Positions 14,237 to 42,309 of a stretch of 64,000 nt of DNA are shown here, piece after piece. The notes under the pieces are model-generated. The model saw only the letters and a program-made list of their open reading frames with translations, had not been told where the DNA came from and searched no databases. The position numbers and the translations under genes are program-made. Every line of letters starts with the position of its first letter. Positions within the stretch are counted from its first letter, which is position 1. This DNA is from Eledone cirrhosa (taxonomy: Eukaryota). The DNA is taken from assembly GCA_964016885.1 (NCBI GenBank), contig OZ024761.1, positions 26,288,001-26,352,000 on the forward strand, read 5' to 3'.

Positions 14237-14302
14237 TATTTTATTATATATATTTCAAGGGCAACCAAGGCAAATTATGGTGCGCTTTCATCAGATAAAA
14301 TA
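14237..14302 (-). ncRNA. Type I hammerhead ribozyme motif (family D)
   Basis: Minus strand: UAUUUUAU-CUGAUGA-AAGCGCACC..GGUUGCCCUU-GAAA-UAUAUA-UA-AUAAAAUA. Stem I is a perfect 8 bp and stem III is palindromic. Confidence 0.85.
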
Positions 14303-15011
14303 TAGATTTGTTTTATAAATAAATATTGACATACCCGGAAAAAAAGACAACCTTAACGGTTGGAGCTTCCTGGATAGTGGAGATATTACATTTATTGAGG
14401 GTAATACAAAGTTATGAGTGAGTATGCAAATGAATGCTCGAAAGGTTGAAAAGATGACGGTTTATTTAAATTAAACTGTTGGAAGAAGATATGTAAGGGA
14501 GAGAGAAGAAAAGAGAAAGGAGAAAGAAAGAAGAGGAAAGAAAGAACGATTATACATATTGATAGTGAAGATAGAGTGAATAAATAAGTTTCAAAGGAGA
14601 AATATACACAGCGTATATCTAAGTGAAAGAAGAAATAAGATTAACGTGGAAGAATAATATTTATAATGCAGGGTTCATTAAGTTTTGATTACAATACTTA
14701 TAATGATAGGTTGAAAAATTAAAGATTAAAATTTGCCTTAATATTAAAGATTTAATTTAATAATTTAATATTAATAATTATATTATATTAATATGTATTA
14801 GTAATAATATATTGGTTTAAAAGTGTATGTTAAGGATTATACATTATTTAAATAAATATATAGTATTTTACATTAGAGAAAATCTAGTAGAGTTTATTTT
14901 ATTAAAAGTTGTAAGTCAAAATTTAAACATCCAAATAATTCTAAATTTATGAAAAATTTTCGAGTGTTTACAAAGGAATAACCACTTAATTATATTATAA
15001 AAACAAATCTG

Positions 15012-15077
15012 TATTTTATCTGATGAAAGCGCACCATAATTTGCCTTGGTTGCCCTTGAAATATGTATAATATAATG
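15012..15077 (+). ncRNA. Type I hammerhead ribozyme motif (family D)
   Basis: tattttat ctgatga aagcgcacc..ggttgccctt gaaa tatgta ta atataatg. Confidence 0.78.
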
Positions 15078-15741
15078 AATGTGGTTTTATAAATATAGTT
15101 TCCATTTATTAATATATTGTATATATATATATATATATATATATAATGTGTGTGTGTGTGGGGGGGGGGGTTGATGTGTGTGTGGGGGGGGGGTGTTAGT
15201 GGAAAAAGACCCCGACGGTTTAAAACGCGCTAACTCATGCTTTTCCACTATCACGCTAAATTTTCTTTAGTCAGAAATTTGGCGAAAGCTTCCATTTCTA
15301 CTAAATTTCAAACCACTCGCTGTATTATAACAAACTTATATATATATATATTAGTTCGGACCTAGCTGTCGTAATGGCCGGAGCTCAGCCGTTGGGGTCC
15401 TTAATCTTTTCATATATAATTTCCAAATTTCCAAATCAGGCCATCAGTCACTATATTTTTGAAAATAGCATATATTTTCACTAGCTCTGACAGTCGGCAG
15501 CTGAACATGTGCTGTACTGATGAAGAGTGATTTAGATTCATTAGTGTCTGCAGTTCTGTTTACAGACCAACACAAAGCAAGAATGAGGGGTTCATTCTAC
15601 GCACATGGCTATAAAAATGAGGCTTGTTTGCATAATTGCAAACGAATCGAATGTTATTATTAATATTCAAAAACTCAGATTATATATATATTATTATATA
15701 CGATATTAAACAAATGGAAACTATATTTATAAAACCATATT

Positions 15742-15807
15742 TATTTCATTATACATATTTCAGGGATACCATATTAAAAATATGGCATGCCTTCGTCAGA
15801 TAAAATA
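15742..15807 (-). ncRNA. Type I hammerhead ribozyme motif (family D, CUGACGA variant)
   Basis: Minus strand: tattttat ctgacga aggcatgcc..ggtatccct gaaa tatgta ta atgaaata; compensatory stem II changes relative to 14237. Confidence 0.82.
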
Positions 15808-15907
15808 CAATATATAAACAGTTTTTTAAATAATTTTTACGTACCATATTATAAGCGACCATTAAATTAGGAAGCTGTCTGGGTAGTATATATTATTATA
15901 TATAAGG

Positions 15908-16095
15908 GCAGTGGATTGGCAGTATCAGTAGAGGGTCGGACGCCATGCTTTCCAGCATAGTTACGTCCCTTTACGATCTGAGTTCAAATCCCGCCGAGGT
16001 TGACTTTGCCTTTCATCCTTACGGGGTCGATAAAATAAAGTACCAGTAATGCACTGGGTAATTGCTGGCCTTGTGCCTAAAATAGAAACAATTAT
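15908..16095 (+). mobile_element. Family A SINE (deletion subfamily)
   Basis: ggcagtggattggcagtatc head, gagttcaaatccc B box, Meta-like gccgaggttgactttgcctttcatccttacggggtcgataaaataaagtacc, and an (ATT)n tail. Confidence 0.92.
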
Positions 16096-39706: not shown

Positions 39707-39982
39707 AAATTTTTTCTTATTGAACGTTCCATTGGGAATATCTATGGGACACAAAGCGTAGAGATAGAAATATGAATTTTCTCCAGTACTATATATATAA
39801 TTATGTATATATAAATATGTATATATATATAAATATTTATATATATGTCTATATATATATATATATATACATATTTATATATACATAATTATATATATGG
39901 TACTGGAGAAAATTCATATTTCTATCTCTACGCTTTGTGTCACATAGATATTTCCAATGGAACGTTCAATAAGAAAAATTTT
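39707..39982. repeat. Inverted duplication (~120-bp arms) centred in a TA tract
   Basis: ttcttattgaacgttcc...ctccagtac is mirrored by gtactggag...ggaacgttcaataagaa, including the TA interruptions. Confidence 0.9.
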
Positions 39983-40285
39983 TTATATATATAATGCTTT
40001 TTACATTCATTTGATTTATTGATTTATTGATTTTTTATCTGAGTGTCCCGAATCATCCAGATCGCAATTTTTCGGTCGTACGGTTGATTATAGACTTGTT
40101 CTATGTGTGACGGTATTTTAACGATAGTTATAGCTCTGATTTATCTGAATTATTGAGCCCTCTGCCGCTCATTTCGAATTTTGTTTATCGTGAACTCGTG
40201 CGCCGATTTTTCGATACTCGATTATTCTACTATATATATATATATATATATATATATATATATATATATATATATATATATATAT

Positions 40286-40486
40286 AGTAATAATAAATGT
40301 GAAAACTGAAATCCGAGGAAGGCTCGATAAAGATGATATATATATAAAATATATATGAAGCCGTAGAGCAAATATTTATTATAAGAACAGGTTAAAGTTT
40401 AAACAAAGAACCGCTGCTTTTAACCTTTTGCGGGATCTTCTGAAACTCTTATCGAGATCTCTTCGGATTTTGGTCTCCATATTACT
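40286..40486 (-). mobile_element. Family F element with an inverted end, in (TA)n
   Basis: Homologous to 46948-47108; the ends agtaat..atccga..ctcgataa and ttatcgag..tcggat..attact are inverted. Confidence 0.75.
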
Positions 40487-40726
40487 ATATATATATATAT
40501 ATATATAGTTAGATAGATATATAGAGAGATAGGTATTAGTCTGGAATTTGCTGTTGAAACGGCAAGATCTCAACCTCCGGGTCACTTCTCTCTATTGTAT
40601 TCACACTCCTCTATGCCAAATAGGGAGTGCACTATTGAAAATTGTTCTTACTCTTTTAGAACTTGTAAAATCCTGATCTCTCTCTCTCTCTCTCTCTATA
40701 TATATATATATATATATATATATATA

Positions 40727-40921
40727 TAGGAACGAGTAGGACCCCGACGGCTGAGCTCAAGCCGTTTCGACGGCTAATTCTGGACTATTTTAGTCCAGAA
40801 TTAGCCGTCGAAACGGCTTGAGCTCAGCCGTCGGGGTCCTACTCGTTCCTATTACCCACTCTACTACCCTAAGTATTGAGTACTTTGGTGCGTTATGGTT
40901 CGTTACCACATTTCCTTCGTT
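40727..40921 (+). mobile_element. Family C fold-back element
   Basis: Perfect arms with copy-specific gagtagg/cctactc; apex ctggactattttagtccag. Confidence 0.93.
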
Positions 40922-42234
40922 ATATATATATATATATATATATATATTGGGTCGTCAAGTATGCCATTTGTAGAAAGTTGTTTTATCTTCAAGACATTTC
41001 TACAAATAGCATACTTGACCACCCAATATATTTATTATGTATGTATGTATACTCTCTATATATAAACACATCAATGCATATATAATACATTCGGACACAT
41101 GCACACATACACACAGAGAGGATATGTTCCGATTTCAAAAGTTCAATCAAGGAATCAAAGATTGATTTAATCGATTTAATCGAATTTTATATTTGAAGTA
41201 TTTATAGCATTTATATCCATCAAGATTTCTACGAATGTTTAACAGTGCAACGCGTTTAAATTCCCAATGTCTGAATACTATCTTCATAATACAAGACTTT
41301 AAACTTAGAAAACTCATTGCACATTTTGGTTTGGTAGTTCCAACAACGTACATAGAATTTTCTTCTGAAGATTTCTGTAGAATCTTAGCCAGAAAAACGC
41401 GTTTGATCTTGTTTTAATTCACTTCAAAGTAATTTTGTTTCTTTACTTCTGCTTATCACTTGTTTCCCCTAATTCTTCGTTGCCATATTTAAATACAAAT
41501 TTAAGTTACACAGATAAATATCTATGGATTATACACTAACTGAACTTCTACCCCACTTCTCATATTGTTTGTTTGTTGTTTTAGTTTATATCATTGTGTG
41601 TCTGTGTGTTTATGTATGGCTCTGAGTTTGTGTGTGTGAGTGTCTGAATATATGTATGTTTCTGTATGTATGTCTGTGTTTGTGTCAATGTGTGAGTGTT
41701 GTGTGTGTGTTTAATCTTTTAATTATGAATATTGGTTTCAAGTCTTGAATGTGTAAACAATATCTGCGAAGTTTATAGTGTCCTGACGGGCCAATATCTG
41801 GTAGAAAGGGAATATTTTCCTAACACACATATGCAGCATGCGTTTGATATATATATATATGTGGGTGTGGGTGTGTGTGTGTGGGGGGGGGGGGGGTCTA
41901 TTATAGATAGAGAAATGAGATTTTGTCTTTATTGATTAACAAGTGTGATGCGAAGAACAGGGTGCAGTCGGGTCTATAGAATTAATATAGATCCTGAGTC
42001 ACCCATCCGTGAAACGGTCGTAATGATGTATAATCAATAAAAACATTAATGTGAAGCCTCCCTTTGTTTTCAGTATATACACTCGGTTTTAGTTTAGAGT
42101 ACTGATTTTGGTACCCATCCCAGTAAACCATGAATCTCTTGAACCTAATATTATTATAATATATATATATATATATATATATATATATATATATAGTAAT
42201 AAACGAAAGATATCTACTTTATATCCACTATATC

Positions 42235-42309
42235 TATTTTATAGTTATTTCGAAGATGCAATGTTTTATGTATAATATAAACCAAAGCATGTCCTCTTCA
42301 GATAAAATA
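42235..42309 (-). ncRNA. Degenerate hammerhead motif, distant family D relative (CUGAAGA)
   Basis: Minus strand: tattttat ctgaaga ggacatgc..gcatcttc gaaa taac ta taaaata; the cleavage-site register is imperfect. Confidence 0.55.

Follow-up and report, generated by a model that had tools for sequence, protein, structure and literature searches.

The stretch of DNA analysed here (the window) comprises 64,000 nucleotides of Eledone cirrhosa (contig OZ024761.1, positions 26,288,001 to 26,352,000, forward strand) and is 27% G+C and rich in (TA)n; the genome measures 3.0 Gb. It contains seven copies of a type I hammerhead motif whose stem II bears C·C in place of a base pair at pair 4 (bases 10.4 and 11.4). 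Judged by its sequence, the motif is the hammerhead of the pseudo-long terminal repeat (pseudo-LTR) of a high-copy Penelope-like retrotransposon of the Hydra clade. The constant feature of this lineage is the unpaired C10.4, not C·C as such, and the mismatch is probably under constraint. In the favoured explanation, which is given about an even chance, the unpaired C10.4 and the all-A-U stem III keep the ribozyme weak, so that cutting would require a double hammerhead or assistance by the element's protein. It is placed above a tertiary contact, neutral inheritance and recognition by a protein or promoter, each of which is weighed below.

Pair 4 in the window and across the genome

Both strands of the window were scanned for CUGANGA followed by GAAA. 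The seven type I hammerheads of the mismatch family have their cores at 14294 (-), 15020 (+), 15799 (-), 26425 (-), 26582 (+), 37075 (-) and 42301 (-). The original prediction had listed six of them; all six are present at its coordinates with the stem II arms that it cited, and the seventh (26574-26638, +) had been unlisted. Pair 4 is C·C in 7/7 copies. Pairs 1-3 and 5-7 are closed with the sole exception of A·C at pair 3 in the copy with core 26582, and the stems of the copies at 14237 and 15012 require a bulge at pair 8. Pair 10.1-11.1, canonically G-C, is A-U in five copies, G·U in one and G-C in one. The core (CUGANGA ... GAA, A15.1-U16.1, H17) is intact in six of the seven with the cleavage triplet AUA, and core differences among the copies are confined to N7, as had been claimed.

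A genome pattern with fixed flanks and core and a free stem II gave 36,799 matches (0 for the reversed control), which together with the covariation described below bears out the type I hammerhead identity. This number is a lower bound, as the pattern omits subfamilies with G at the last-but-one position of stem I, the youngest included. Pair 4 is C·C in 32,860 of the matches (89%), U·C in 1,490, C·A in 431, G-C in 271 and C-G in 190; 1,557 are unclassified. A closed pair 4 (C-G or G-C) accounts for 1.3%. The C-G and G-C matches listed are single changes or indel shifts spread over all subfamilies, and no amplified subfamily with closed pair 4 was found among them. A suspected C-G subfamily of 843 copies was dropped, 99 of the 100 matches listed carrying C·C. 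One amplified subfamily does carry C·A (27 of 100 C·A matches listed, out of 431; counted by eye), and a C·U subfamily is present in L022, L033, L068 and L098. The mismatch had been described as an invariant C-C; this is true of the window copies and does not extend to the whole genome. CpG decay as the origin of C·C was rejected, since it would yield U or A, not C.

The subfamilies were defined on 171 copies, which remained of 208 distinct ones after removal of 37 that were of insufficient length or had entered the set through a search on pair 4 itself. They form 18 clusters of at least two copies (147 copies in total), with 24 singletons left out. The subfamily tree was built from the flanks only and is weak, with good support for 2/15 inner branches; on it, the clusters with C·A and C·U stand apart as a distant group. 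In the main clade of 15 clusters neither base of pair 4 changes (0/0), versus 1-5 changes at each of the 16 other stem II sides. C10.4 does not change over all 18 clusters, and pair 4 is unpaired in one real copy from each of them (18/18). Therefore it is the unpaired C10.4 that is constant.

The other parts of the hammerhead behave as a conserved RNA fold. In the 18 representatives double changes occur at all six other stem II pairs counted. The covariation score is 0.332 versus 0.218 for shuffled alignments (reached in 0/500 shuffles; not corrected for relatedness), which supports the proposed covariation of stem II. In all, eight hammerhead pairs show double changes, in agreement with three stems around the core and an open stem I, and all core columns are invariant. 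Pair 10.1-11.1 is A-U in 11 representatives, G-C in 3, G-U in 3 and different in 1. The canonical G-C is thus not the rule; natural variation at this pair is known (PMC3088659).

It could be supposed that an ancestral C·C stayed unchanged by chance in every successful lineage. Such neutral inheritance would agree with the background, where 10/66 flank columns (15%) are likewise unchanged (1/11 among C/G columns), with the small number of related subfamilies (about 15, on a poorly resolved tree) and with the change of the partner base on the deepest branch. However, changes should accumulate faster at unpaired bases than at paired ones, whereas here it is the 16 other stem II sides that all changed. 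C10.4, which is often in CpG, mutates readily after insertion (U·C in 1,490 matches), and still U·C is the majority state in no cluster of at least three copies. Neutral inheritance is accordingly regarded as improbable.

Hydra-like hammerheads outside the family

As an outgroup, 34 hammerheads were picked by hand from 77 Hydra-like metagenome loci, in which they sit at the expected places. Within-locus repeats and three matches with other core spacing or stem III were left out. Pair 4 is closed in 30/30 of those with stems of at least four pairs; in the other four a stem of only 3 bp carries a short loop. About a third show U·U at pair 1. In the Hydra rows of File S2 of the PMC8557442 supplement, read by eye, no C·C was seen at pair 4. 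The mismatch is therefore specific to the lineage and no general need of Hydra hammerheads.

These data bear on the possibility that C10.4 flips out of stem II or kinks it and docks on stem I, thereby raising activity and standing in for the contact between loops I and II of canonical hammerheads. Such a tertiary contact would fit the fixed C10.4 (0 changes over 18 clusters while its partner changes) and stem I, which is kept in sequence and not in pairing alone (0-2 changes per position). The defect also lies three pairs from the core, where the four short outside hammerheads start their loop. Moreover, the C·A subfamily has U1.7 facing U, which recalls a proposed A-U1.7 Hoogsteen contact (PMC11875169). 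On the other hand, U1.7 is C in a subfamily of 843 copies, and the outside L170 and L191 combine nearly the same stem I with a stem II that is paired throughout. Position 11.4 changes only twice, which leaves little basis for judging covariation of pair 4 with stem I. A tertiary contact is therefore considered rather unlikely.

The retrotransposon behind the motif

The pseudo-LTR origin goes beyond what the original prediction had recognised. Two of the 30 loci fetched with the arm 26535-26766 run on into an open reading frame (ORF; L011 and L019). Locus L032 is a partial tandem made of a hammerhead, a broken ORF, a 3' untranslated region (UTR) of about 1.5 kb, a second hammerhead about 3.9 kb after the first and (TA)n. 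Uninterrupted frames of 742 aa are present in L050 and L055, and the ATG lies 186 nt downstream of the predicted cleavage site.

An AlphaFold model of the L055 ORF was built on 76 of 121 sequences, with a pLDDT (predicted local distance difference test) of 89. Its top Foldseek match is TERT (E 9e-9), and telomerases rank first in VIA-align (Z 15.6), where residues 618-720 align with the GIY-YIG domain of I-TevI (Z 9.7, rmsd, root-mean-square deviation, 2.2, 88 residues aligned). According to the model, the single ORF encodes a reverse transcriptase (RT) resembling that of telomerase, followed at the C terminus by an endonuclease of the GIY-YIG type. Modelled alone, the endonuclease domain reached a pLDDT of 42, and this model was not used. 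Pfam gave no family for the ORF or for three homologues, and a sequence-profile search of the PDB found nothing.

The L055 protein carries RWR, DKT, YRDD, CxCX5C, CxxC and CxH and is without GxKF/Y. Among the 76 aligned proteins, RW[KR] is found in 67, DKT in 70, CxCX5C in 64, CxxC in 72, CxH in 57 and GxKF/Y in none; the GIY-YIG core has no conserved Cys (no CCHH). The hallmarks of the Hydra clade (PMC8557442) are the RWK motif, DKT replacing DKG, absence of the N-terminal GxKF/Y, the CxCX5C linker, CxxC and CxH around conserved E and N without CCHH, and insertion into (TA)n. In a by-eye comparison the L055 protein follows the Hydra alignment of that paper motif for motif. A Naiad origin was rejected on account of the C-terminal position of the endonuclease.

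(TA)n follows 190/219 copies, and their ends pile up at two positions. Tandem hammerheads were found in L032, L232 and L233, and one array, of the very young subfamily described below, has three, 4,011 bp apart; the unit period is 3.9-4.0 kb. Divergent hammerhead pairs less than 1 kb apart occur in 6/30 unselected loci (L064-L093), and inversions of such kind are known for these elements (PMC8557442; PMC4209133). A second protein search led to a very young subfamily, with open frames of at least 700 aa in 29/30 loci. It has intact ORFs of 737 aa (L236-L261, L302-L303) and the three-unit tandem just mentioned, and 16 copies differ from L240 by 2-10 of 2,211 nt. Its hammerhead shows additional mismatches, A·C at pair 1 and G·A at pair 8.

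Copies in the window

Viewed against the complete element, the window copies are, by their sequence, 5'-truncated or inverted element ends (pseudo-LTRs) in (TA)n. The features are as follows.

13973..14063, plus strand: tail-only family fragment, separated from 14104..15118 by a shared (TA)n run.
14104..15118: 5'-truncated Hydra-clade element whose 5' end is joined to a short copy in inverted orientation, (TA)n on both sides.
14168..14187, minus strand: bulged hairpin 1, a tail motif conserved among Hydra elements, lying downstream of the hammerhead at 14237.
14237..14302, minus strand: type I hammerhead, bulged-stem II subfamily, C·C at pair 4, perfect stem III palindrome.
15012..15077, plus strand: type I hammerhead carried by the inverted short arm of the 14104..15118 insertion, C·C at pair 4.
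15742..15807, minus strand: type I hammerhead with N7 = C, in the fragment 15695-about 15890.
26243..26766: foldback insertion, two inverted 250-bp arms with 96% identity, (TA)n flanks.
26302..26321, minus strand: bulged hairpin 1, left foldback arm.
26369..26433, minus strand: type I hammerhead, left foldback arm, C·C at pair 4.
26574..26638, plus strand: type I hammerhead, right foldback arm, C·C at pair 4, private A·C at pair 3.
26686..26705, plus strand: bulged hairpin 1, right foldback arm.
37023..37083, minus strand: type I hammerhead belonging to a short-loop subfamily, C·C at pair 4, within the fragment about 36985-37200.
42235..42309, minus strand: decayed hammerhead of a more distant subfamily with long loop II, C·C at pair 4.

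In the 14104..15118 insertion the truncated element lies on the minus strand and has the long 3' end; 14104-14545 matches family loci, and most of 14580-14985 is unassigned. The fragment 15695-about 15890 stops at the short 3' end, in (TA)n. Each arm of the 26243..26766 foldback consists of one hammerhead and a long tail. The 37023 hammerhead has private changes in stems I and III. The 42235 copy sits in a fragment of about 42196-42420, and its stem III/stem I junction, intact in its ten printed relatives, is damaged. A GIY-YIG remnant suspected upstream of 15012 was dropped, as tblastn with the L032 frames gave nothing meaningful in the window, which contains no ORF belonging to the element. 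The copies were also considered as retrozymes; this was rejected, the window copies being solo or inverted and the family having a full ORF.

Foldback insertions (26243-26766, and 6/30 of the loci L064-L093) occur frequently; their transcription, if it takes place, would produce long double-stranded RNA.

No hammerhead reaches the Rfam gathering score in the window, and none appears at E<=10 over 26300-26700. MIR8562, matched over the foldback, is below the gathering score and owes its match to the long inverted repeat. Single-strand minimum-free-energy folds contain the full hammerhead in 0/7 window copies, and the RNAalifold consensus placed a shifted pairing where stems I and III should be.

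Stem III and predicted dimeric cleavage

A palindromic stem III and cleavage as a dimer had been suggested from the window copies. In the window, stem III is self-complementary in 4/7 copies; breaking changes are present in 26369 (where a GG centre destroys the self-complementarity) and 37023, and the 42235 copy is damaged. Across the family, the stem III 8-mer is self-complementary in 18/18 cluster majorities with centres shifting among TA, TG and CG (TA or TG in 35,222/36,799 matches), and in the distant group an A-U pair has become G-C by a double change. Since pairing of the two central bases is impossible inside a single molecule, this covariation points to an intermolecular helix.

Stem III has a probability of at most 0.01 in the monomers of 12/12 clusters, and the double-hammerhead fold beats two monomer folds by 9.0-15.9 kcal/mol, still 3.6-17.6 kcal/mol above the cofold minimum. 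The suggestion of dimeric cleavage is hence supported as a prediction, and a palindromic helix III with cleavage as a dimer is a described mode (PMC4209133, PMC3088659, PMC6765202, PMC7229834). The close hammerhead pairs in the window are on opposite strands, and no window copy has a close partner on its own strand; a window transcript would carry one hammerhead and its antisense copy.

Insertion ends and uncut templates

The insertions stop downstream of the hammerhead in two piles, giving two 3' ends about 90 nt apart. Among the 111 of 219 copies that could be aligned to a full-length reference, 57 end 0-10 nt (mode 7) before copy 1 of a bulged hairpin and 4 end elsewhere; in the remaining 50, the end is 1-12 nt (mode 9) before the hairpin's second copy. 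The hairpin was compared in 35 sequences, 9 from the E. cirrhosa genome and 26 from outside. Its outer pair is G-C in 26 and A-U in 9, the bulge has 2 nt on the 3' side, and the three upper pairs form in 96/105 cells (shuffled mean 64, maximum 77). It is Hydra-wide: 71 sense versus 5 antisense occurrences were found in the 77 outside loci, and it is present twice in 20/34 hammerhead-adjacent cases. It was seen in the window at 14168-14187, 26302-26321 and 26686-26705, and also in the loci L155-L220 and L232-L261. The twin hairpin marks the two 3' insertion ends and is a candidate RT start signal.

As the ends lie downstream of the hammerhead, each copy derives from complementary DNA that crossed an intact 3' hammerhead. 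The 5' ends were scored in the 57 alignable of 60 ORF-bearing copies. None lies within 20 nt of the cleavage site (0/57), and 29/57 copies extend at least 100 nt upstream through it. The absence of 5' ends at this site indicates that the templates were uncut. This matches the anole Poseidon element: there, RT initiates at two internal sites, insertion proceeds mainly from uncut RNA, and the hammerhead depends on its protein for cutting (PMC11167929).

The protein dependence of the anole hammerhead raises the further possibility that the unpaired C is read by the RT-endonuclease of the element, or that both Cs belong to a promoter of the pseudo-LTR, folding being secondary. Pseudo-LTRs do bear promoters (PMC6765202), and the mismatch is limited to one lineage, the tested proteins of which are 80-98% identical to L055. 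However, the RNA signal conserved throughout Hydra elements is the downstream bulged hairpin, not pair 4, and the bases next to pair 4 vary freely in compensating pairs, which fits an RNA structure better than a DNA site. Recognition is the least probable of the four explanations.

A proposed damped ribozyme

The favoured explanation, that the mismatch keeps the ribozyme weak, starts from the uncut templates. Head-to-tail copies about 4 kb apart would be co-transcribed, and the 3' hammerhead crossed by reverse transcription would have to be uncut at that moment, which would favour a slow ribozyme. Cleavage could follow later or take place in other transcripts. The mismatch is calculated to cost 3.8-6.7 kcal/mol versus a closed pair, and the three core-proximal pairs of stem II form with a probability below 0.5 in 7/12 subfamilies. 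The near-zero probability of stem III in the monomers and the two additional mismatches of the youngest subfamily also count in favour of damping. The window copies are likely passive, with each of the foldback hammerheads presumably masked by the antisense arm.

Several observations speak against this explanation. The core-proximal pairs are predicted to form in 5/12 subfamilies (0.76-0.97), that of the 26243-26766 foldback included. A pure brake leaves unexplained the constancy of C as the 5' base and of pair 4 as the site of the defect. The outside Hydra elements share the template problem, yet their pair 4 is closed in 30/30, albeit with U·U at pair 1 in about a third. The invariance itself is read from the weak flank tree described above, and chance invariance of both bases amounts to about 2% for one pair and is higher over nine pairs. 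Furthermore, the copies scored for 5' ends had been chosen for an RT match. Slow cutting is likely, as a prediction from sequence and folds.

Constraint on the mismatch is moderately supported by the absence of changes at pair 4. The specific roles that had been offered for it, a tertiary contact or a protein site, find less support: the 3' partner may be C, A or U, U1.7 has become C in a subfamily of 843 copies, and outside hammerheads with the same stem I are fully paired.

More speculatively, the damped hammerhead and the hairpins may form one timed module: the C10.4-damped, dimer-only hammerhead would let RT through, the twin hairpins would set two start points, and the protein would then switch cleavage on. 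The start points would lie a few bases upstream of the hairpins, at TA-rich template able to pair with the nicked (TA)n target, and the hairpins would act much as the template boundary in telomerase. This combined scheme is held only tentatively.

Other features nearby

A type I hammerhead-like motif at 22243 (-) shares the A-U palindromic stem III of the family; its stem II is long, and its cleavage site carries C. At 38959 (+), and also in L022 and L033, there is a further hammerhead family with a paired stem II, a U·U-type base and a 9-nt stem III, which resembles the outside Hydra elements. More CUGANGA...GAAA cores are located at 46200 (+), 28197 and 32992 (+), 54696 (-), 30752 (-) and 15517 (+), and those at 51357 (-) and 51487 (+) form a divergent inverted pair; they probably belong to other Penelope-like families. 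The window also includes a 45-bp unit in nineteen tandem copies (29366-30220) and a low-complexity GTG-rich stretch with a 130-bp higher-order repeat (5890-6585). Among the fetched loci, L018 contains at 212-595 a GIY-YIG fragment from a different Hydra-like family. An ORF fragment on the minus strand of L007 (frame from 2432) resembles a LINE AP-endonuclease.

Comparison with known systems

Literature searches found no paper on the pair-4 mismatch; an example present only in a figure could have escaped them. The terms 'hairpin' and 'stem-loop' are absent from the main text of Craig et al. (PMC8557442), and the available part of an Octopus vulgaris repeat annotation mentions Penelope-like elements and no ribozyme (PMC13282606). 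The role of hammerheads in Penelope-like elements is described as an open question (PMC8557442, PMC11167929). In the present family, tens of thousands of copies make up a mutational series provided by nature, together with a very young intact subfamily, and a one-base change can directly probe whether a weak ribozyme is selected for. The surprise is modest, since the mismatch is confined to one lineage and neither the class nor its hammerhead nor cleavage as a dimer is new. A lead of wider reach is the twin hairpin at the insertion ends, which Hydra elements have in common.

The closest relatives are the Hydra-clade Penelope-like elements (PLEs) with a C-terminal endonuclease, which include Hydra-1_Obim from Octopus bimaculoides (Craig et al. 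2021, PMC8557442). The present element shares with them the single ORF with RT and C-terminal GIY-YIG, the RWK-type, DKT, CxCX5C, CxxC and CxH motifs, (TA)n targets, partial tandems, inverted 5'-truncated copies and the type I hammerhead in the pseudo-LTR. It differs in its unit length (generally <3 kb in the clade), in the 8-nt A-U palindrome of stem III (mostly 9-10 nt), in a tail of about 90 nt (30-40) and in a copy number of at least 36,799. Hydra-1_Obim is a separate family, and its hammerhead listed in the supplement has a fully paired stem II.

The minimal metazoan PLE hammerheads (Cervera and de la Pena 2014, PMC4209133) resemble the present ones in the long helix II, the palindromic helix III with proposed dimer cleavage (also reported by Lunse et al., according to PMC6765202), the covarying consensus families, the thousands of solo copies and the opposite-strand pairs 100-700 bp apart. 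In contrast to them, most subfamilies here lack G10.1-C11.1, stem I has 8 bp and not 4-5, and a 1x1 internal mismatch occupies a fixed position. Other stem II defects are known, namely the helix II bulge in D. virilis and U·U at the base of axolotl HHR_Amex2 (PMC7229834).

Non-LTR retrozymes (PMC7229834; bioRxiv 10.64898/2026.07.22.740005) are likewise animal repeats with type I hammerheads, kin to the PLE pseudo-LTR and in part dimer-cleaving. They form head-to-tail tandems of 170-400 nt, whereas solo or inverted fragments of an autonomous element are found here.

PAc, a Poseidon element from Anolis carolinensis (Frangieh et al. 2024, PMC11167929), also has a hammerhead upstream of two internal RT starts that define the tail, and an uncut template. 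It belongs to another clade, and its starts fall within the ORF, where an AC-rich stem-loop without homology to the target contains them. In the present element the two ends are located in TA-rich sequence of the 5' UTR, and a bulged hairpin follows each of them after 4-12 nt. The element class, its hammerhead, its occurrence in octopus and dimer cleavage were already known; for the pair-4 mismatch of this lineage the literature searches found no earlier paper.

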